From Squalus acanthias (Eukaryota), in the NCBI GenBank assembly GCA_030390025.1, contig JASTWF010000033.1, forward strand, positions 2,420,001 to 2,484,000: a DNA stretch of 64,000 nt, in the 5' to 3' direction. The notes beneath the pieces are model-generated. The model saw only the letters and a list, made by a program, of their open reading frames with translations. It was not told the origin of the DNA and did no database searches. Positions 14,705 to 29,153 of this stretch are shown piece after piece (position 1 is the stretch's first letter; the number at the start of each line of letters is the position of its first letter). A program made the position numbers and the translations under genes.

Positions 14705-16061
14705 ATCCTCCCCACCTCAGCTAATATCCTCAGCTCCTCCCCACCCCACCTGATATCCTCAGCTCTTCACCACCCCACCTAATATCCTCAGCTCCTCCCC
14801 ACCCCACCTAATATCCTCAGCTCCTCCCCACCCCACCTAATATCCTCAGCTCCTTCCCACCCCACCTAATATCCTCAGCTCCTCCCCACCCCACCTAATA
14901 TCCTCAGCTCCTCCCCACCCCACCTAATATACTCAGCTACTCCCCACCCCACCTAATATCCTCAGCTCCTCCCCACCCCACCTAATATCCTCAGCTCCTC
15001 CCCACCCCACCTAATATCCTCAGCTCCTCCCCACCCCACCTAATATCCTCAGATCCTCCACACCCAACCTAATATCCTCAGCTCCTCCCCACCTCACCTA
15101 ATATCCTCAGCTCCTCCCCACCCCACCTAATATCCTCAGCTCCTCCCCACCCTACCTAATATCCTCAGCTCCTCCCCACCCCACCTAATATCCTCAGCTC
15201 CTCCACACCCCACCTAATATCCTCAGCTCCTCCCCACCCACCTAATATCCTCAGCTCCTCCCCACCCCATCTAATATCCTCAGCTCCTCCCAACCCCACC
15301 TAATATCCTCAGCTCCTCCCCACCCCACCTAATATCCTCAGCTCCTCCCCACCCCACCTAATATCCTCAGCTACTCCCCACCCCACCTAATATCCTCAGC
15401 TCCTCCCAACCCCACCGAATATCCTCAGCTCCTCCCCACCCCACCTAATATCCTCAGCTCCTCTCAACCCCACCTAATATCCTCAGCTCCACCCCACCCC
15501 ACCTAATATCCTCAGCTCCTCCCAACCCCACCTAATATCCTCAGCTTCTCCACACCCCACCTAATATCATCAGCTCCTCCCCACTCCACCTAATAACTTC
15601 AGCTCCTCCACACCCCACCTAATATCCTCAGCTCCTCCCCACTCCACCTAATGTCCTCAGCTCCTCCCCACCCCACCTAATAGCATCAACTCCTCCCCAC
15701 TCCACCTAATATCCTCAGCTCCTCTAGACCCCACCTAATATCCCCAGCTCCTCCCCACTCCAGCTAATAACCTCAGCTCCTCCACACCCCACCTAATATC
15801 CTCAGCTCCTCCCCACCCCAGCTAATATCCTCAGCTCCTCCGCACCACACCTATTATCCTCAGCTCCTCCCCACTCCACCTAATGTCCTCAGCACCTCCC
15901 CACCCCACCTAATATCATCAGCTCCCCCCCACTCCACCTAATATCCTCAGCTCCTCTACACCCCACCTAATATCCTCAGCTCCCCCCCACTCCACCTAAT
16001 ATCCTCAGCTCCTCCTCACCCCATCTAATATCGGCAGCTGCTCCCAAATCCAACTAATATC
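14705..16061. repeat. 29-bp minisatellite, ~46 copies
   Basis: Unit CTAATATCCTCAGCTCCTCCCCACCCCAC; period 29 (14895, 14924). Confidence 0.95.
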
Positions 16062-17092
16062 TGAAGAGATCGCACAGTCTCTGTTTGAAGAATGGACTCC
16101 GTCGAGAATAATTTGTGGACTTTATGGGATTTTTCTGAGCGTATTTTCCCTGTGATTGGATCACCCTTTGTAAATATGTGAAAAATTGGTTTGTTAAACC
16201 TCCAGAGAACGCATGGCAGTTGGGTCTGACATTATAACTGTCAGTCATCCAGAATATGCAAAAACACTTCTCAACTCCATCTGAGAAGAGAATCAGAACA
16301 ATGAACCCAGTGGCCTAGCCAGCCGAAGAGGAGCCATTTTTTCCCAACACAAAGACCGAAATATATCCCAGACTTAGGGCCATTAGTCCAATCATGGAAT
16401 ACTCATGAGTCTGAGGATGACCCCATCACTGATTAAGCACCGAAGTGCTTAGAAACAAAATGATTTTAGAGATTGGCGGGTTAGGTAGGGGTAGCAAGAC
16501 TCCTATAAAGATAGATCCTTTCCCACCATTCTCTCTCTCTCTCGCTCTCGCTGCACCAAGATCGACCTAACAAGAAGTACCAGAGGAAGAAGCAACTAAG
16601 TGGAGCGATCGAGCCCGACTGGGTGTGGGGGTAAGCATGGTCTCGAGTGTCCAAAGCCGGTAACCAGAGGGCTCAGAGTTTTTCTCAGAAGTGAAGTTTT
16701 TGGGCTATTCCGGGGTGGGAGCTTTGTTTGTTTCAGCAAGGGGAAACGGCTTATGCGACTGGGTAATTCGTTGGTAGGGGTGGAATTAGAGTCCACCATA
16801 GCAACAAGGGAACTACTGCTTGTCATAGTCCTAAGTTTTGTACTGTATGTATGTTGTTTGTAACCTGGATTTTATTCTCCACAGAGACAGTGATTTAGTT
16901 TAGTAGTGAATGTTTTAGCCAGTGTATGTTAGACCAAATAAATATAAGTTTGATTTCTCACCGAAGCATTCCTGTCCGCGACTTATTTCATTTACACTCT
17001 GAATAATAATTCCCAGGTGTACAATTTTCGTAAGGCGGGGGCGATTCGAACCGTCCGTCTAGCAATTGGGCTAGGATCAAAAACCACTTACA
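16062..17092 (+). repeat. 5' LTR (1031 bp)
   Basis: TG...CA ends; homologous to 26305-28160; TATAAA at 16504, AATAAA at 16937. Confidence 0.92.
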
Positions 17093-17097
17093 TCTCT

Positions 17098-17115
17098 TGG
17101 TGACTGCGGGCAGGA
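17098..17115 (+). promoter_or_regulatory. Primer binding site, degenerate tRNA-Ser-like
   Basis: TGGTGACTGCGGGCAGGA 5 nt after the LTR; resembles the complement of tRNA-Ser 3' ends (TGGCG...GCAGGAT). Confidence 0.55.
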
Positions 17116-17131
17116 CCTGGGTGAAAGGAAT

Positions 17132-18869
17132 GTGAATCAGTCATGGACAGCGCTTCTGGCGAAAGATCCCAAATGGAGAAAAAGGATTTCTTCATATGTG
17201 TTTAAGAAGGTTAACGTCACTAAGAAGTGGGTGCTAGGCTTGTTGCGGTCTGAGCGTCCGGTGGACGCAGTGGCAGAATGGACGGAGGGCAAGGACCATA
17301 GGCGCAGCATTGAACAGGCGATATGGCTCGTCTGTCTGCAAAGACAAGTCCAACTGCTAGATAAGCAGGTTGCTAAGTTAGAGGCAGAGCTCAGGGAGTC
17401 CGAGGCACAGTCAGACGCAAGGGCTGTAGTAGGGAGCAGGTTATGCACGGAGCTCAGGGATGAGATGCAGGGAAGAATAAGCCTGGAGAAAACCTTCCGT
17501 AACCATAAGGAGTTCCTGCAATGCCAGGTAACTGAGGCAAAGGGGAACGAGAGGGTGGTTAGGGAGGAGAACGCTCGCTTGTCGAGTGAGGTAAAGGTGC
17601 TGGGAGAGCAGTTGAAGGATATTCAGGTGGCATACAGAGACGCCAGCACTAGAGGGTTTGATACGGGTAATCATGGTCCTGGCCAGGAGCAGATCCGGAA
17701 TTTGACCGATTCTCTATCTAAGGCCAAAGGGATGGTCTGCTTGGTAGCTCCGGGAATGGCCCGGGTAGATGAGGAAGAGCAGGAGGGAGATAAGGAGGAC
17801 TGTGAGGCAGAGGAGGACGCTCGACCACCGCCCGAAGTGCCGGGACCAGGACCCATGTGCCCTGTCCGGCAGCGGAAATACGGTGCGCCCGTAGACGGTC
17901 AAGAGCAAGGACCACTGCAGAGTGACTTCGTGATCCCGTATACGACACCCCAGCTGCAGGCAATGGTCTCTAACCTGACCAAACTGACCAGCACAGGGGA
18001 CCCATCTCTCCATTTTACGGATGTGGAGCAGGTGGGGGTGGATCAACAATTGTAACCAAGCTGAGACAGACAAATTACTTCTATTTTCCCTGGATAGTTG
18101 GTTGTACCAGTCGCTCTCAGCGGGTAGCAAGAGGGGGCAGGGTACGTTAGAGGGGATAAAGGATGACATCCTAGAGGCTATGGGCCTCAGTGATGAAAGT
18201 CCCTTCTCTCGAGTGGAAAGGACACTGCAGTCAGCTGGGGAGGCACCGCAGGCTTTCGCGGACAGGCTTTGGCTCGTCTATCGGAGTGCCTGTGCGGGGG
18301 TGCCCGACCGGGCGCAGCTGCAGGGGGAGCCTAGGGCTCATTGGCTGAGGACCCTGGTGGCAAACAGCCTGCCCAGGATCAAGGCCAAAGCAGAGGGGTG
18401 GTTCGATTCCAGGGATCCCCAGACCACAGAAGTGAGGGTGATCCGGCAGTTAACTCTCTCTTTGAAGAATGGTAGGGGTGAGGATGACAAACCAAAGGGC
18501 AGAGTACACGAGTTAAAGCCTAGTGGAGGCAACGTTAGAAGAGAGTGGCGCCAGGAAGGGGGTAGCTCAGAGAAGAAGCAGGGTTGTTATGGGTGCGGGA
18601 GTAAAGGGCACTGGAGGAAAGACTGCCCAGTCTCTGACAAAAGGAGCGGGAAAGGGGATCCTCCAGCGCCAGTGCAGAAAGCCGCAGCTGTGGCAGGAAG
18701 TAGCACTGATCCGTTCGCGGTATTAGTGGCTGCTCTCCGCGCAGTCTTTCCGGCAGGGCAGGGTAGGGTGGATGCAGCAGCGGGCAGCGTACTCCCATCC
18801 GCCCCAAACAATCCCGACCCATTGACTGGGGGCTTCTCAGCCCGTTTACCTGTGCCCACTAAGATATGA
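17132..18869 (+). pseudogene. gag: gag (coiled-coil N-region, capsid-like region, CCHC zinc knuckle, PSAP)
   Basis: Heptad-rich segment QRQVQLLDKQVAKLEAELRE; CYGCGSKGHWRKDC knuckle; frameshift in the G-run at ~18034; no in-frame ATG at the 5' end. Confidence 0.85.
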
Positions 18870-21800
18870 TGCTTGGAAGAGACCGTGCGTGAAGATGGGG
18901 GTGGAGAAGGTGCAAGGGACCTATCTGCTGGACACTGGAGCTTCAAGCACCATTGTCTATGCGGATAACCCGACCACAGCACCTCTATCGTGTGGGGTCC
19001 CATATAACTTAGTAGAGTTCACCAGGAACGAACAGGCTGGGTCTTTCTCCATCCCACTAGCCATCGATCTGGGTACACTCCGTACGGAGTGGAAATGTGT
19101 CCTGATGGGGTGGGAGCGGGAGGGATAGGCATTCTGGGGGCAGACTTCATACTGGCCCACAAGATATTGGTGGATTTTCGGAATCACTGTCTTTGGGGGG
19201 CAGTATGCACGGGAAAGGAGAAGGAGGTGGCAGTTATACCAGGGAAGCAAGGCAAGGGAACCGTGTGTACGATGAAGACCAAGGATAGTTATGACCTTGA
19301 ACTTTTGGTCACTTCTACCCCAGCGGAGTACATAGCGGATGTACGAGCCAACCTCACGGCATTCGCTACACACAAGCACGACTGTGGGAGGGTAATCGGG
19401 GTGGAGGTCAGAGTAGAAGGAGACCCCATGGCCCAACCACAGAAACAGTGCAACTTCCCCAGAGAGGCAGAGGCGGATTTAGAGATGGCATTTGGATCAT
19501 TGGTTGAGCAGGGTGTGTTGGGACCCATAGCGACCCATGTGAACTCTCCGATTTGGCCAGTTAGGAAACTGGACAATTCGTGGAGAGCCACTGTGGACTA
19601 TCGGGTTCTTAACAAGAACATCCTAGGCCTGTGCCCCCACCATTGCAGCCGTAGCCGACCTGATCGGGAGTATCCCGGCATCCGCAAAAACATTCACGGT
19701 GCTGGACATTTCGAATGGATTCTGGTCTATCCCTCTCAAAAGGGAGGACCAGTATAAATTCGCATTCACTTTCAAGGGTCAGCAGTACACATGGACCTGC
19801 CTCCCCCGAGGGTTTCATAACTGTCCTTCTATTTTCCACCAATATATGGCCAACTGTTTAAAAGGGTTTAGCAGACCGCAGCAGCTTGTACAGTACGTGG
19901 ACGACCTGCTTTTGTTCTCCAACGAGGGGGAAGTGAAATGGCCCCCTGCTGGCTGAGCTGCTGAGTCTGTAAAAGGAAGCTGAGTTCAAGGTTAATCCCA
20001 AGAAAGCACAGATCCGCCAGCAGGACGTAAGATTCCTCAGGCTGACCATGCGTACTGGGGAGAGGGCCATCGATGAGGCGAAAAGGAAGGCGGTACAGGA
20101 GCTATCTGCCCCGACCACGATAACGGAGGTAAGCTCCTTCCTGGGACTCAGAGGGTATTGCAGGTATTTCGTAGAGGACTATGCCACTACGGCAGCTCCT
20201 CTACTCCGGCTCCTTCACAAGGGAGTGGGATGAGGACTGCAGGGCAGCTTTTAGTCGTCTGTAGAGAGATTTGCAGACCGCACCGGCTTTAGGAGCGTTG
20301 ATGGGGGAAAGGAGTTATTTTTGGAGGTAGCTGCCACAGGGGACAGTTTGAGTGCAGTGCTGCTCCAGGAGCGGCATGGCAAGCTGAGGCCTGTGGTATA
20401 CTCATCAAGAATCCTCACAGATGTAGAGAGGGGGTACTCCAATTGTGAGAGGCACCTGCTTGCCACACATTGGGCCGTGAGGAGATCACAAATCTTCACG
20501 GGAGCGTCCCCGTTAACTCTCTTAACCCATCATACGCCCACTCAGATGCTTCTGGATGGGAGGATAAAGGACGGCACGGTGAGCAGTGCACGCATTGCTC
20601 GCTGGACTTTATTGCTCTCTCAGACGAATTTGAGTGTGAAAGGCCTCTGTGAGCCTAAGCTCCCCGCAAATTTGATCTACCGAGGGGTGGCCCACAAATG
20701 TTCTGTTGAATGGGTATGGGACGTAGACATAGGGTTTCGGGCTGGGATCCATGTAGACGGGTCCAGTACAGTGGTGGCAGGGGAGCAACTCACTGGATGC
20801 GGGATTTTTGACCCAAAGGCAGGCATTGCCAAGACCATTAAACTCCTGAGCACCATGAGCGCCCAGCACGCTGAACTGTAGGCGGTGGTGTTTGTGTTTA
20901 CTCAGCCCGAAGTGTACCCTACACCCTATACTATTTGCTCGGACAGCATGTTCACTTGCAATTTGTGGACAGAATATTTAGCCATTTGGTCTCGTCGTGG
21001 GTTCACATCTGCAGACGGGAAACCCCTAGCAACAAAGCCATTGTTGCAACAGATCATAACATCGATAGGAACCCAGGGGGATTTCTATATCCACAAAGTC
21101 AAGGCCCATTCAAAGGCGGAACCCCGTGCGGAGGGCAATCAGCAGGCCAACGTGATGACCAAAGAGGGTGCTCGAACGGGCACGTTTTGGGATCCATATG
21201 GGTCGAGTCAGGTAGCAGCGATCAGAGACAGAGGTGGGGCCTAAGCGCGTGCAGGGGTAGCATTGGCACCGGACCTAAAGATGGTCCAGGCACGGGATCC
21301 CGTCATAAAGACTGTTCTGGAGACGTTGGCTTAGGGAGATAAGGTAGAGCGTCCATACGGAGTGGCAGGTATCTCGCTAAATACGTAGTACCATTATTAA
21401 AGAAGGGTAGTAGGGATAAACCATGGAATTACAGGCCAGTGAGCCTGACATCAGTGGTAGGGAAATTATTGGAAAAAATTCTGAGGGACAGAATTAGTCT
21501 CCACTTGGAGAGGCAAGGATTAATCAAGTATAGTCATCATGGCTTTGTCAGGGGGAGATCATGTCTAACCAATTTGATTGAATTTTTCGAGCGGGTGACT
21601 AGGTGTATGGATGAGGGTAGTGCAGTTGATATAGTCTGCATGGACTTCAGTAAGGCTTTTGACGAAGTCCCGCATGGGTGACTGGTCAAGAAGGTAAAAG
21701 CCCATGGGATCCAGTGCAACCTGGCACATTGGATCCAAAATTGGCTTAGTGGCAGGAGGCAGAGGGTGATGGTCGAAGGTTGTTTTTGTGACTGGAAGCC

Positions 21801-24137
21801 TGTGTCCAATCGTGTACGGCTAGGATCGGTGCTGGGTCCTTTACATTAGTGTAGTGTACATTAATGATTTAGATATGAATGTAAGAGGTATGATCAGTAA
21901 GTTCGCAGATGACACGAAAATTGGTGGGGTGGTAAATAGCGAGGAGGGAAGCCTCAGGCTACAGGACGGTATAGACGGGATGGTTAGATGGGCAGAACAG
22001 TGGCACATGGAATTTAACCCTGAAAAGTGTGAGGTGATGCATTTTGGGAGGACTAACAAGGCAAGGGAATACATAATGAACGGTAGGGCCCTGGGAAGGA
22101 CAGAGGATCAGAGGGACATTGTTGTGCATGTACATAGATCCCTGAAGGCAGCAGGACAGGTAGATAAGGTGGTTAAAAAGGCATATGGGAAACTTGCCTA
22201 CATTAACCGAGGCATAGAATATAAGAGCAGGGAGGTTATGATGGAGCTGCACAAACCGCAAGTTAGGCCATAGCTGGAATAATGTGTGCAGTTCTGGGTG
22301 CCACACAATAGGAAGGATGTGATTGCATTGGAGAGGGTGCAGAGGAGTTTCACCAGGATGTTACCTGGGCTGCAGCGCTTCAGCTATGAAGAGAGACTGG
22401 ACAGGCTGTGGTTGTTTTCCTTAGAGCAGAGAAGGCTGAGGGAGGACCTGATTGAGGTGTACAAAATTATGAGGTGCATAGATAGGGTAGATAGAAAGGA
22501 ACTTTTTCCCCTTATTAGAGGGGTCAATAACCAGGGGGCATAGCTTCAAGGTAAGGGGCAGGAGGTTTAGATGGGTTGAGGAAAAACTTTTTCACCCAGA
22601 GGGTGGTTGGAATCTGGAACTCACTGCCTGAAAGGGTGGTAGAGTGAGGAACCCTCACAGCATTCAAGAAGCATTTAGATGAGCACTTGAAATGCCATAG
22701 CGTACAAGGCTACGGACCAAGTGCTGGAACATGGGATTAGAATAGACAGGGCTTGATGGCCGGCGTGGACACGATGGGCCGAAGGGCCTCTTTCTGTGCT
22801 GTATAACTCTATGACTCTATGACTCTATGACTCTAAAGGAAGGGACGGTTTTCAGAGGGGAACAGTGGGCAGTTCAGCAGCAGCACCGGAGACAATTCCT
22901 TCAGTTGGCCCAGGAGGGTCCAGGAGCGGGGCACCCCGGGCCGGAGACCACCTGGCAACGGGTGAGGGAGGACGTCCGCGACTTCTGCACGGATTGCTTG
23001 GTGTGTGCTGCAAACAACTCTGACACCCCAAAAAAGGAAGGTATCCATGGGACACACTAGGAGAGTGGAGGGACCATGGCAGTCCATACAGGTCGATTAT
23101 ATCGGACCGCTGCCCACCGCGCAGCGGGGTTACAAGTACTGCCTGGTCCTTGTGGATGTGTTCTCTCAATGGGTAGAAGCCTTCCCATGCCGAACAGCCA
23201 CAGCTTTGTGGACCGCAAGGATTGTAGTGAGAGAAGTGTTCTCTCGGCTACCATGGTATGTGGAGTCCGATCAGGGGAGTCACTTCACAGCGGCAGTCAT
23301 GCAGGCGACTCTGAAGATCTAAGGTGTAGAGGGTAAATGGCACGTCGCACACAACACGCAGTCATCTCGGATTGTGGAGCGGATGAATAGGACCATCAAG
23401 GATAGGTTACGGAAGGAGACGGGAGACTCGCCTAGAAAATGGGCGGTTGTCTTGCCGTTAGTTCTGATGGGTTCCGAGCCAGCCCGTCTAGAAGCACAGG
23501 GTATTCCCCGTATGAGCTCGTGACTGGCAGGGTCATGAGAACGCCCAGCCATGTACTGGCCCCGGTTCTCACGGAAGGTCAGTTGAGAGAGGTGAACCGG
23601 GACAGGTTTGTTAAGAATTTGTTTGAGCATCTCAGACAGATCCATTGGCAGGCTGCCAGTAACATGGGGAAGCAACATCGTAGAAATCGTTTATTGCTTG
23701 AGCCTCAGAGGCAACACGAGTGGAAGGTCGGAGATCAAGTAATGGTTAGAAACTTCGCCAAGGTAGGGACTTTTGAACCGCTATACATGGGACCGTACAG
23801 TATTGTGGATAGTGCAAGTCCGATGGTATATGCGATCAAAATGCCTCGACGCACTAAGTGGTTCCATATCAATCAGTGCAAGCTTTTCAACCCTGGGGAA
23901 AGAGCTGATAAGAGGAGGAAACAGCAGGGAGTGTTGAGCTGCGCTACAGGTGTGGGACTCCAGCCCATAATCTGGGACTGTGAGGAGCCCACAGAGGGAC
24001 CAGTCGTTCCGCCTGTGGGGACTGGAGTGAGAAGGAGTGCCAGGATCCCACGGCCGAGGGTGCCGTGGACGCCTCCTTACACACCGTTGAACGAAGGAAG
24101 CCGGAGTTGTAAGAGGCCCAGGGTCGAGGAGACCTAG
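18826..24137 (+). pseudogene. pol: pro-pol: aspartic protease, RT, tether RNase H, RNase H, integrase; disrupted and CR1-interrupted
   Basis: LLDTGAS; NSPIWPV, VDYRVLN, LDISNGFW, QYVDDLL; VDGSS/HAEL/SDS/KVKAH RNase H; IN GHPG..CTDCLVC, QVDYIG, SDQGSHF, VERMNRTIK, GPY. Confidence 0.92.
21382..22832 (+). mobile_element. 5'-truncated CR1 LINE inserted into pol between RNase H and integrase
   Basis: CR1 RT motifs; (ACTCTATG)n tail; removing it rejoins ...GVAGISL|KEGTVFRGEQW with CTAAA at both junctions. Confidence 0.92.
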
Positions 24138-24337
24138 TGTGGCCACCCGGAGACGGGTGGCGCTGTACATAACTTCTTTCTCTCCTGTCTGTTGCCTTAG
24201 CTTGTCTGTATAGTTTGGATTTACATGTATGCTGTGGATACCAAATGTAATCGTGTGTAGCTGCGTCTGGAAAGGTGAGGCATCACCCAAGGACAACGTT
24301 GCATTCTGTGTCTTTTCAGGGAACGCCTAAGAACAAG

Positions 24338-25572
24338 ATGAATTCAGCCATGGTAGTCCTGAGCGTCATGATTGAAGACAGCGAGAGTCACAGGGGCGAC
24401 ACCGAGGAATCGGTTATCTTCGGCTGCACCGGCGGAGACGGACCGACCGTGACCACTGGAGGTGGCTCGAAGGATGGGGCGAGCGTCTATCTCCACGAGG
24501 GAAGATGGCCTGGATGGCTGGGGTCGAATTCCACCCGGTATTCCAGCCATGACAAGTTCACCTATGGTGAAGCGTCCATCCCATGCCCGAGAATAGGGGT
24601 TACCACCTCCCGGGTTAGGGTAACAGAGGGCAAACGGGTGTGGCTTAGCTGTAGGGGACACATTCCACTGGGAAGGTGGTGGTGGCTCAGGAAACTGAGC
24701 GCGGATACAGGGGACCAGACAGCTGACTGGGAAAGACTTAGTAATGACACGTACCGGACGATCACGGGTTCTCAGGGAGGAGTAAATGTGTGTTGGGATA
24801 AGTGGTGGGAATCCGAGGAAGGGTTATATGTGTGTATGTGGGGGTCGGAAAAGATCTGCCCAGCGGATGTGTCGATGGCGTTTAGCAGGACACCGGGGGT
24901 GGGATCGGTTGGGATCGGAGTGCGGACTCCTGTGTGATCCCAAAACCCCCGATAACAATCAACGCCACAGAGCTCATCTCATACACCAGGAAGCCCCCGC
25001 CCAGAGCCCCGACAGTACAGACGGCTGTAGATGGGTGTCCCACCACCACCAGAGGTCCAGGGAATGGGTTGGTGTTAATCCCGACTGACAAAGTGTTGTT
25101 TCAGAACGTGCTCTACGCCGTGGCATGAGTGACCCTGAACCTGACTGAAGTCCATCTGCCTGTGTGGTGTCCAAGGAAGACGGAGAAGCTTTATGAAGCT
25201 CTGTTAAAAGCGATGTTACAGAATTTTTTTGAACTGGACCATGGACATGTAGAGAAAGAATAGCTTTATAATCTGAATGTTGGGGATAGTGTGGGCTCCG
25301 GGAGGCAGAGAAGAGGGACCTGGATGATTCCTTTTCTGCCGGAACATCTCACTGAGTTAATAAAGACCGTTGAACTCTCCCAGAAACATTTTTACACTTT
25401 GGAGCAAAAGACAGTAGAAGTGGGGGAGGAGATCAAGGGGATTGTCTCACCACCATGGTGGGACATCGGTCTGAGTATAGAGATTCCTCCCTGGATCCGC
25501 ATCTGTTCCCATGCATTAGTTATCATACAATTGTTGATTGTAAGCTACTTGTTGTACACCAGCTGCAGGTGA
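24338..25572 (+). pseudogene. env: env-like glycoprotein: signal-like start, Ig-like domain, F2-like segment, furin site, truncated ectodomain, TM
   Basis: Acceptor TCTGTGTCTTTTCAG at 24305-19, ATG 24338; V.EG..V.LSC...W...EGLYVC; RQRR at 25303-14; TM ALVIIQLLIVSYLLY; one frameshift and internal stops at 25126 and 25261. Confidence 0.72.
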
Positions 25573-25728
25573 TGGTTCCAGATGCTCTGAGCGCGGTGGC
25601 AAGGGGTGTTAGATCGATCCGGAAAGGTGTCATTGATTTATGTTGATGATGGTTTCTCCCTGCAAAAACTTGTAATGTACCAAGGTTCTGTAAGCAAGTG
25701 TATTGCATTCTGGTTATAGTTTTACACT

Positions 25729-26040
25729 CTGTATTGTGCGATGTGCACTGTTGCATTTTTGTAATGAGTTACCACCTGTCAATGCTGTATTGTGTGATGT
25801 GCGCTGTTGTATTTTTGTAATGTGTTACCACCTGTCAATGCTGTACTGTGTGATGTGCGCTGTTGCATTTTTGTAATGAGTTACCACCTGTCAATGCTGT
25901 ATTGTGTGATGTGCGCTGTTGTATTTTTGTAATGTGTTACCACCTGTCAATGCTGTACTGGGTGATGTGCGCTGTTGTGTTATTGTAATGTGTTACCACC
26001 TGTCAATGCTGTACTGTGTGATGTGCGCGGTGACTTTTTG
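25729..26040. repeat. 56-bp tandem repeat (~5.5 copies) in the proviral 3' UTR
   Basis: GTTACCACCTGTCAATGCTG recurs at 25768, 25824, etc. Confidence 0.92.
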
Positions 26041-26293
26041 GTAACGTCCTGTGGATCTGATTAATTTTCTGTAGTTTGACTTGAAGTTTGTCGGTGGGAG
26101 TTGGAACCCAGCCATTTGAATGTGTTCAGAAGCCGTTTCGCTGATGTTTTGAGTCGGTAGAAGGGAACTATGACACGCAGTAAGGGGGTACAGCTCTGGG
26201 GTTAAAATGTAAAATCAGGGAAACAGCTTCACTTGTGGGAGACTTTGGCCTTTGCTCTCTCATCGAGTGATGCTTTGTGGAAAGAACAGCATC

Positions 26294-26304
26294 AAACGGG
26301 GGAC
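26294..26304 (+). promoter_or_regulatory. Polypurine tract
   Basis: AAACGGGGGAC immediately before the TG of the 3' LTR. Confidence 0.7.
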
Positions 26305-26526
26305 TGAAGAGATCACAAAGTCTCTGTTTGAAGAATGGACTCAGTCGAGAATATTTTGTAGACTTTATGGGATTTTTCTGAGGGTATTTTCCCTGTGATG
26401 GGATCACCCTGTGCAGATATGTGAAAAAGTGGTTTGTTAAAACTCCAGAGAACACATGGCAGTTGGCTGTGACAAAAGAACCGTCAGTCATCCAGAATAT
26501 GCAAAAGCACTTCTCACCTCCATCTC

Positions 26527-26718
26527 GCAGAGATGCCGGCGTTGGACTGGGGTGGACAAAAAAGAGAAGTCGCGCAACACCAGGTTATAGTCCAACAGAT
26601 TTATTTAAAATTACAAGCTTTCTGAGCTATCGCCCCTTCTTCAGGTAAAGTTACAATGTTAATTTTAAATAAATCTGTTGGACTATCACCTGGGGTTGTG
26701 CGACTTCTCATTTTTGTC
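26527..26718 (-). mobile_element. Short palindromic Penelope pLTR derivative with hammerhead motif
   Basis: ~60-bp inverted arms; 12-bp TSD CACCTCCATCTC (26515-26, 26719-30); CTGAAGA...GAAAGCTT on the minus strand at 26611-26648. Confidence 0.8.
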
Positions 26719-26959
26719 CACCTCCATCTCAGAAGAGAAGCAGAACAATGAACCCACTGGCCTAGCCAACCGGAGAGGAGCCAGTTTTTCCCAACACAAA
26801 GACCGAATTATGTCCCAGACTTTGGGCTATTAGTACAATCACGGAATACTCATGGGTCTGAGGATGACCCATTACTGATTAAGCACCGGAGCGCTTAGAA
26901 ACAAAAGGATTTTAAAGATTGGCAGGAAAGATAGGGATAGCAAGACTCCTATAAAGATA

Positions 26960-27533
26960 TGATGCGGAGATGCCGGTGTTGGAAGGGGTGGACAAAAGTG
27001 AGAAGTCGCACAACACCAGGTTATAGTCCAACAGTTTTGTTTGAAATCACAAGCTTTCGGAGCGCTGCACCTTCGTCAGGTGAAGTGAAGGAATACGAAT
27101 CGGCAAAGCATATATAGACAGAGAACAATGCCTGTGTAGCGTACAATGTCAGACGACTACAGTTAATCTATCTGACTGCATTTCATCACACCTCGGCAGA
27201 GAAAGAATCAGGTCAGCCAGGAAGGCACCACATCAAAGACATAGCAAGATACAACTAAGACAATGAGGTGGGATCACAGGGGGTCTAATGTGTCAAAAGT
27301 AGTCTGTATGGAAAACCATAAACTTTAAAATGTTTACTTTTTTTTACTGGAAATCACATCTGTGAACAAGCCAACGACGACTCGAGTCTGGATGACTCTA
27401 CGTCATGTAGCATGACATGAACCCAAGATCCCGGTTGAGGCCGTCCTCATGGGTGCGGAACTTGGCTATCAGTTTCTGCTTGATGATTTTGCGTTGTCGT
27501 GTGTCTCGAAGGCCGCCTTGGAGAACGCTTCAT
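26960..27533 (-). mobile_element. 5'-truncated Penelope-like element in the LTR TATA box
   Basis: Homologous to the ORF end and pLTR of the element at 33-36 kb; TSD CTATAAA(G/C)ATA at 26949-59 and 27534-44. Confidence 0.85.
27047..27084 (-). ncRNA. Minimal type I hammerhead ribozyme (canonical core)
   Basis: TTCAC-CTGACGA-AGGTGCAGCGCTCC-GAAA-GCTT-GTGA. Confidence 0.75.
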
Positions 27534-28160
27534 CTATAAACATAGATCCTTTCCCACCATCTCTCTCTCTCTCTGTCTCTCTCTCGCCCCAAAAAGATCG
27601 ACCTAACAAGAAGTACCAGAGGAAGAAGCAGCTAAGTGGAGCGATCGAGACCGACTGTGTGCGTGTGGAGGTAAGCATGGTCTCGAGTGTCCCAAGCCGG
27701 TAAACCAGATATCCCAGGCGAGCTGGGTGATTTGTAAAGAGCTGAGAGTTTCTCAGAAGTGAAGCTTTTGGGCTATTCCGAGGGTGGAGCTTCCTTTGTT
27801 TCAGCCAGGCGAAGGGGCTTATGCGACTGGGTAATTCGTTGGTAGGGGTGGAATTAGAGTCCACCATAGCAACAAGGGAATTACTGCTTGTCATAGTCCT
27901 CAGTTTTGTACTGTATGTATGTTGTTTGTAACCTGGATTTTATTCTCCACAGAGACAGTGATTTCGTTTAGTAGTGCACGTTTTAGTGAGTATATGTTAG
28001 ACCAAATAAATATAAGTTTGATTTTTCACCGAAGCATTCCTGTCCGTGACTTATTTTATTTACACTCTGAATAAGAATTTCCGGGAATAGAACTTTCGTA
28101 AGGCGGGGGCGATTCGAACCGTCCATCTAGCTGTTGGGCTAGAATCAAAAACCGCTTACA

Positions 28161-29153
28161 TAGGGAAATGGTATTAGGGAAATTGATGGGATTGAAGGCC
28201 GATAAATCCCCAGGGTCTGATAATCTACATCCTAGGGTAGGTAAGGAAGTGGCCCAAGAAATAGTGGATGCATTGCTGGTCATCTTCCAAAATTCTATCG
28301 ACTCTGGAACAGTTCCCATGGATTGGGGATAGCTAATGTAACCCCACCAATTAAAAAAGGTGGTAGAGAGAAAATGGGGAATTATAGTCTGACATCAGTA
28401 GTGGTGAAAATGCTAGAGTCCATTATAAAAGATGTAATAGCTGAGCACTTGGAAAACAGTGACAGGATCGGACAAAGTCAACATGGATTTACAAAAGGTA
28501 ATTCATGCCTGACTAATCTACTGGAATTTTTTGAGGAGATAACTGGTAGAATAGATAAGGGAAAACCAGTGGATGTGGTGTATTTGGAATTTCAGAAGGC
28601 TTTCGATAAGGTCCCGCATAAGAGATTAGCGTGCAAAGTTAAAGCACATGGGATTGTGGGTAAGGTACTGTCTTGGATAGAAAACTGGTTGGCAGACAGG
28701 AAGCAAAGTGTTGGAATAAACGAGTCTTTTTCCGAGTGGCAGGCAGTGACTAGTGGGGTACCGCAGGGATCGGTGCTAGGACACCAGCTATTCACAATAT
28801 ATATAAATTATCTAGACGAGGGAACTAGATGTAATATCTCCAAGTTTGCAGATGACAAAAAGCTGGGTGGGAATGTGTGCTGTGAGGAGGATGCAGAGAA
28901 ACTCCAGTATGATTTGGACAGGTTGGGTGATTGGGCAGATGCATGGCAGATGCAGTATAATGTGAATAAATGCGAGGTTATCCACTTTCGTGGCAAAAAC
29001 AGGAAGACAGATTATTATCTGAATGGCAATAGATTGGGAAAAGGGGAAGGGCAACGAGTCCTGGGAGTCCTTGTGCACCAGTCGCTGAAGGTAAGCATGC
29101 AGGTGCAGCAGGCGGTTAAGAAGGCAAATGGTATGTTGGCCTTCATAGCGAGA
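28161..29153 (+). mobile_element. CR1 LINE ORF2 internal fragment
   Basis: ORF 28323..29348 with QHGF..SCLTNL, KAFDKVPH, VPQGSVLG, KFADD. Confidence 0.9.

Follow-up and report, generated by a model that had tools for sequence, protein, structure and literature searches.

The provirus at positions 16062-28160 on the plus strand of the 64,000-nucleotide stretch presented above (hereafter the window, whose full-length numbering is used throughout) is a dead copy of an endogenous retrovirus (ERV) family with many copies in its host genome. We judge it likely that this family is a snakehead-retrovirus-like (SnRV-like) member (class III-type, clade Huo) of the canonical Retroviridae, primed by tRNA-Arg, making Gag-Pol by readthrough of a UGA stop codon and carrying an envelope protein (Env) predicted to resemble in fold the fusion protein (F) of paramyxoviruses. 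In the reverse transcriptase (RT) trees the family stands inside canonical Retroviridae, outside both the lokiretroviruses and Ty3/Gypsy. A preliminary description, made from the sequence letters, had proposed a lokiretrovirus, on the ground that a tether (a degenerate RNase H) plus RNase H together with an F-like Env describes those viruses. It was right to see an element of retrovirus type rather than Ty3/Gypsy, the RT lying outside Gypsy and the RNase H being dual (Ty3/Gypsy usually has a single RNase H), but the lokiretrovirus identity did not survive the RT trees. The family is new, within a known kind of retrovirus: no description of it, or of an F-like SnRV-type Env, was found in the literature, where bioRxiv 10.1101/2021.11.23.469661, on anamniote envelopes, may bear on it, and a single-sequence IMG/VR scan gave no match.

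Where among the retroviruses does the family belong? The references were SnRV (10,688 nt; identified by its length and by RT letters matching the published SnRV row), foamy, gamma, delta, epsilon and other retroviruses from IMG/VR, together with fish and frog Pols labelled loki-like by motif resemblance to published rows (10/13 carried the motif tag). Rows L096, L098 and L100, which had been labelled Gypsy or loosely placed, fell in with a retrovirus clade; they and the delta, alpha and lenti rows were left out of the later trees, and the RT tree included no fish foamy-like ERVs. With RT plus tether (48 rows, LG+G4) the loki-like sequences held together (support 100/100), and their sister was the canonical clade (100/99), in which the family is included; with 26 rows under LG+C20 the canonical clade, family included, was again supported at 100/99. 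The window's own 101-residue RT piece groups with the family (support 100), and the RT is outside the foamy clade (100/100). Approximately unbiased (AU) tests rejected the family with loki (p=4.3e-5), the wider group with loki (p=1.7e-4) and the wider group with epsilon/gamma (p=0.006), and allowed a clade of the wider group with SnRV (p=0.38). The best Pol matches are frog, coelacanth and Xenopus proteins (40-46%). Median RT identities of a family copy run from 51% for the frog and coelacanth relatives through 43% for SnRV, 37% for epsilon-like and 35% for gamma-like sequences to 33% for loki, 33% for Gypsy and 32% for foamy. By eye, the RT motif stretch matches elephant-shark CmiERV at 39/46 residues, SnRV at 34/46 and Loki-Ame at 24/46, and in the published RT alignment (PMC7947760 supplement) the family motifs agree with the row of SnRV rather than with those of the Loki viruses. 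The family is thus a canonical retrovirus near the base, with SnRV, by RT identity, the closest named virus.

SnRV shares with the family the single CCHC knuckle and a homologous Env core, and has gag and pol in one frame with a stop between them, TAG there and TGA here, the junctions being UAG-GGC and UGA-CUAG/CUGG respectively. The family Env is shorter, its GPY integrase is nearer loki by identity, and the sequences of the primer-binding site (PBS) differ. SnRV is said, following Hart in 1996, to have an Arg primer and a coiled-coil Gag. The SnRV-related clade, named Huo by Xu et al., occurs in all major vertebrate lineages according to the sections of the sources drawn on here (PMC12193657, PMC6001957, PMC4977317), and in those of Han 2015 (PMC4422223) an SnRV-like lineage of the elephant shark, CmiERV lineage I, was grouped with SnRV. 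That lineage has, on the above motif count, the same RT type as the family and likewise a chondrichthyan host. Judged by eye from the published portion at hand, its scaffold 2 has a different PBS and a gamma-type transmembrane subunit with immunosuppressive and CX6CC motifs, in contrast to the Arg PBS and F-like Env of the family. We take the scaffold 2 PBS to be of tRNA-Ser type. Foamy viruses, within the extracts covered, have a YVDD RT and an F-like Env as the family does, but a Gag without CCHC and a separate pol frame, whereas here there is a knuckle and gag and pol are in frame. XtERV-S of Xenopus, a class III ERV, likewise has gag and pol in one frame with a TGA separating them, but the sections of its description used here (PMC8278194) give it a YIDD RT, a tRNA-Ser PBS, a dUTPase-like segment, no knuckle and a gamma-type env, all unlike the family. 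An identity with ERV4 was set aside, ERV4 being without knuckle and GPY motif in the part of PMC4299795 that was available.

Several observations weigh against affinity with SnRV in particular. None of the maximum-likelihood trees joined SnRV and the family with support; the p of 0.38 merely fails to reject their clade, and sisterhood of the wider group with foamy viruses is not rejected either (p=0.20). Support for the wider group is 89/98 under LG+G4 (48 rows) but 65/81 under LG+C20. The tether is 37% identical to loki versus 27% to SnRV and the integrase 42% versus 38%, and the LG+G4 integrase tree joins the family, its relatives and loki at 99/97. Gag is almost without similarity to SnRV Gag outside the knuckle, and pairwise BLAST of Env against SnRV is weak (E 0.03). 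Also, the loki labels reflect motif resemblance, not the original authors' sequences, and the trees had no ERV-L/ERV-S or Odin rows.

Could the family then represent a separate deep-branching canonical lineage of sharks, frogs and coelacanth, SnRV-like through kept ancestral features and perhaps the first branch after the lokiretroviruses? This seems to us quite unlikely. The LG+C20 RT tree does place the wider group as sister to SnRV plus foamy plus epsilon/gamma, at only 65/81 and 70/84, and in the LG+C20 integrase tree the family and loki are both basal, separated from every other retrovirus (94/91), in keeping with the identities of tether and integrase; yet those RT values are low, the clade with SnRV is not rejected, and Han 2015, in the sections used, grouped the same RT type with SnRV. 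Rather unlikely as well is the proposal that it is the earliest-branching true-retrovirus lineage, between lokiretroviruses and all others, with an ancestral loki-like tether and integrase, an F-type Env and an alphavirus-type UGA-CUAG readthrough signal. If that were true, retroviruses would originally have had the F-type fusogen as their Env, and the gamma-type would have replaced it later, even within the lineage. The SnRV-like placement, with the family putatively sister to SnRV, is the one preferred here.

The RT and integrase trees proposed in the preliminary description gave divided answers, the RT contradicting a loki placement and the integrase leaning to loki under LG with that support gone under LG+C20, where the clade of family, relatives and loki dissolves into a basal polytomy. 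A canonical integrase clade without loki was not rejected in an AU test (p=0.16; row P0126 was relabelled from loki to near for this test, and the trees had no CGIN1 row). For these reasons a recombinant of canonical RT with lokiretrovirus integrase and envelope, which the 99/97 grouping and the F-like Env might suggest, is very improbable. In the RNase H tree (149 columns), moreover, loki is with foamy (98/96), in agreement with the published result, and the family outside, no PF00523 match was shown for the 34 Env relatives as against 2e-7 for loki Env, and the Env is homologous to that of SnRV. The loki-leaning tether and integrase are read as retained ancestral sequence more than recombination.

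Least credible of all is that the family represents a genuine lokiretrovirus, which would be the first from cartilaginous fishes; the RT trees refute this, provided that the loki labels used here are correct. Lokiretroviruses are, in the sections of PMC7947760 used here, like the family in tether plus RNase H, in an F-like Env with an RxRR site and in a similar integrase type, but they differ in RT clade (AU p=4e-5), in an RNase H that goes with foamy and in an Env with a PF00523 sequence match. Loki RT motifs are absent from the family, Wang and Han reported lokiretroviruses in 0/6 chondrichthyan genomes in the same sections, and among the best 12 matches to a loki-like query in the host genome, the 6 usable ones all group with the family's relatives. 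Neither feature on which the lokiretrovirus call had depended is diagnostic: tether plus RNase H is present in all retroviruses (PMC7947760, sections as above), and F-like Envs are found in foamy viruses (PMC11468914, in the part drawn on) and in walleye virus models. The RT falls within none of the groups, Gypsy, spuma and epsilon, that the preliminary description had named as fatal to its reading; that reading fails all the same, the placement being nearest the SnRV-like group.

The anatomy of the window copy is as follows (LTR, long terminal repeat; LINE, long interspersed nuclear element).

14706-16061, strand not set: 29-nt minisatellite forming the 5' flank, common to segmental duplicates
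16062-17092, plus: 5' LTR, TG...CA, with a TATA-like sequence at about 16503 and AATAAA at about 16938
17098-17116, plus: PBS, a decayed match to host tRNA-Arg(TCG)
17143-18825, plus: gag, with frameshifts near its start, middle and end, a heptad-rich N-terminal stretch and one CCHC knuckle at about 18582-18629
18823-18829, plus: gag-pol junction, TGA stop then CTGG, a UGA-CUR-G readthrough-type context
18826-20230, plus: pol, protease (DTG) and RT (YVDD at 19894), frameshifted
20291-20623, plus: tether (Pfam RT_RNaseH, E 1.3e-18)
20750-21172, plus: RNase H, with a stop inside (Pfam RNase_H, E 3.2e-9)
21373-22835 (approximate), plus: 5'-truncated CR1 LINE separating RNase H from integrase, with a (TATGACTC)n tail and RVT_1 matches
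22872-24137, plus: integrase, with H2C2, core and GPY/SH3-type C-terminus (GPY at 23790), frameshifted
24338-25572, plus: env remnant, with signal-peptide-like start, possible Ig-like segment, F2-like part, C-terminal helix and transmembrane stretch
25303-25314, plus: furin site RQRR within the env remnant
about 25324, plus: internal env deletion of about 335 codons (env also has one frameshift and two stops)
25729-26028, plus: 56-nt tandem repeat in the 3' untranslated region
26293-26304, plus: polypurine-tract-like stretch
26305-28160, plus: 3' LTR, with insertions at about 26523-26718 and 26960-27533
28161-29150, plus: older CR1 forming the 3' flank (RVT_1, E 5e-25), common to segmental duplicates

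The LTRs both start with TG and end with CA; their alignment has 1,030 columns free of gaps, and the two large insertions are in the 3' member. Pfam searches of 21 pieces of open reading frame (ORF) gave, in order, zf-CCHC (E 1e-4), RVP (0.015), RVT_1 (1e-19), RT_RNaseH for the tether (1e-18), RNase_H (3e-9), Integrase_H2C2 (5e-7), rve (2e-9) and the SH3-type C-terminus (2e-4). LTRs, PBS, one CCHC knuckle, protease, YVDD RT, two RNase H domains and GPY integrase, as first read from the letters, were thus all recovered by alignment, Pfam and motif positions. The coiled-coil gag fared less well: a heptad-like stretch is visible by eye, and the only match is a weak one to Prefoldin (E 0.037). At the site of the inserted CR1, contigs from three sequencing runs, by our guess of RNA, skip 1,461 nt. 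The two insertions in the 3' LTR (26523-26718 and 26960-27533) are related repeats, the first with 63-nt inverted arms; we presume a resemblance to Penelope, as a candidate label only. Further along, window positions 37829-64000 hold simple satellites of large extent: one array has a CT-rich 17-nt unit and another a 22-nt unit in at least 540 copies.

The Env that was modelled is an unbroken natural sequence; it belongs to a sister subfamily, has 55-66% identity to the window env pieces and was aligned with 34 relatives. The model (predicted local distance difference test, pLDDT, 61; predicted template-modelling score 0.44) matches paramyxovirus/pneumovirus F (E 1.7e-10; Z 12.3, root-mean-square deviation 23 over 352 residues), so that the F-likeness supposed from the letters holds in the predicted fold. 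It also matches foamy Env (Z 8.3), the feline foamy Env model and walleye epsilonretrovirus Env models (E 1.7e-9 and 1.1e-7), and the best PDB profile match is foamy gp130 (E 0.003). F-likeness is therefore common to several retrovirus lineages and not loki-defining. By profile alignment (hhalign) to SnRV Env (probability 79.5, E 1.5e-5, 339 columns) the two are homologous; among the Pfam families shown for the 34 Env relatives there was no PF00523. Residues 9-228 have pLDDT below 50 in the full model, and the head folded alone gave 37.6. With the N-terminal 228 residues so poorly modelled, it is weak Pfam matches (Ig_3 E 0.07 in the window; E 0.0085 at best, in 3/34 Env members) that suggest an Ig fold there, and the head may have a receptor role. 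Env had been described as a separate spliced gene. The env remnant is there, with a signal-peptide-like start, an acceptor-like site ending at 24319 and a donor-like site at 16630 that would suit splicing; about 335 codons are gone, and no joint linking 16630 to 24319 was among the 15 shown (of 16) in four contig sets, guessed to be RNA, covering related copies; this says nothing about expression.

The PBS is complementary to the 3' end of host tRNA-Arg(TCG), genes for which were found in the host genome. For 27 scored of 30 loci, the match was 18/18 in 6 and 17/18 in 4; the other 17, including the window, have 6-7 mismatches, from inserted base(s). The active form was likely primed with tRNA-Arg, and SnRV's own PBS sequence differs. 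The tRNA-Arg(TCG) genes occur with tRNA-Ser(GCT) genes in tandem arrays of about 1,623 nt on contig C26 (39-42 Mb), with 422 exact matches genome-wide.

At the gag-pol junction, the gag-ending TGA directly precedes the pol frame in 41/41 rows (from 45 loci, one locus being counted twice), followed by CTAG in 26, CTGG in 12 and other bases in 3. The knuckle is in frame with pol in 30/41 rows and out of frame in the window. Gag-Pol would likely be made by reading through the UGA stop. UGACUA(G) is a context in which readthrough is known for alphaviruses and certain human genes, and the retroviral contexts given in the part of a 2026 review consulted (PMC13517186) are others, namely UGAAGA, UGACGA, UGAAGU and UAGGGC.

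How abundant is the family? One RT piece has at least 150 matches at 85-100% identity in the 3.7-Gb genome, and an env piece likewise at least 150. A search for intact copies, suggested in the preliminary description, came up empty: among 15 copies with frames listed, none has gag, pol and env all unbroken. Copies with intact ends have 4-bp target-site duplications. By annotation, the Env relatives closest to the family come from skate, sawshark, bamboo shark, houndshark and horn shark, followed by frogs, which supports the chondrichthyan host surmised from the letters and makes it probable. The sister subfamily has, in 3/6 copies (contigs C8, C9 and C3020), long gag and env frames with pol cut to 250-300 codons; these pol-deleted copies are non-autonomous and env-bearing. 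A second shark ERV group (C10:32.24 Mb and C19:45.71 Mb), nearest to a Xenopus Pol, adjoins env pieces 30-49% identical to the F-like Env and an ORF weakly matching the Env head; its C19 locus looks nested. Sawshark gene models (zinc finger, Niban-like, cadherin-like) include pieces of the family Env, probably through mis-prediction or exonisation. A 739-residue bamboo-shark Env relative has the UniRef name 'Ig-like domain-containing protein', and the frog Mantella has 16 near-identical Env relatives.

That the window provirus is dead is plain. Against unbroken natural frames of other copies its pol has at least 5 frame changes and eight stops, and against the unbroken reference Env its env has one frameshift, two stops and loss of residues ~337-671. 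Its ends show no target-site duplication (TATC versus TAGG). The LTRs differ by a Kimura two-parameter (K2P) distance of 0.103 over the 1,030 columns (47 transitions, 52 transversions). Dating from this was dropped, the differences being transversion-rich, the duplication absent and the distance common to its duplicates (0.099-0.105). No closer partner for the 5' LTR was found among 38 loci, and recombination between two proviruses is possible. Two independent copies, with LTR K2P of 0.036 and 0.043, are very roughly 8-10 million years old at a mammal rate or 80-100 at a shark rate, both as quoted in the part of Han 2015 used here (PMC4422223).

The multiplication of the window provirus is visible in its flanks. 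The 5' minisatellite is present in 9/9 nearest copies and the start of the 3' CR1 in 8/9, and provirus plus both flanks recur on contigs C29, C251, C2561, C3325, C3597 and C2208, so the provirus has been multiplied, flanks included, by host segmental duplication. The satellite flank is found at 12/29 classed PBS loci. The env deletion junction is in 40/40 scored env matches, part of which count is due to the host duplication, given the shared flanks of the nearest copies. Three env-deleted copies at independent sites have distinct 4-bp target-site duplications (AGGA, CTTA, ACCT), and the genome also has a copy of this subfamily that lacks the deletion, so the deleted variant stayed mobile after loss of the fusion subunit. 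An enveloped ancestor may have entered the germline, and a variant without most of the fusion subunit would have kept copying, intracellularly or with a helper Env, inserting at numerous sites and leaving 4-bp duplications there. The window provirus would later have lost its original flank match, been copied with its flanks by segmental duplication, and decayed by frameshifts, stops, and CR1 and LTR insertions.

What does the family mean for retroviruses? Having both a dual RNase H and an F-like Env does not suffice for a lokiretrovirus call, and hence no new host class is added for those viruses. What is added is a large, well-preserved chondrichthyan group near the base of canonical retroviruses, where SnRV is, to our knowledge, the sole infectious virus known. 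The group bears on the four scenarios for Env origin of Wang and Han, within the sections of PMC7947760 used here: since an F-like Env recurs in the SnRV-like, foamy, epsilon and loki lineages, an F-type Env is favoured as the ancestral one. In the elephant shark this Pol type comes with a gamma-type Env and here with an F-like one, which likely reflects an envelope swap. The provirus is otherwise ordinary-looking, and its remaining interest is in its basal position, in that swap and in the conserved UGA-CUAG junction, which is a testable recoding signal.

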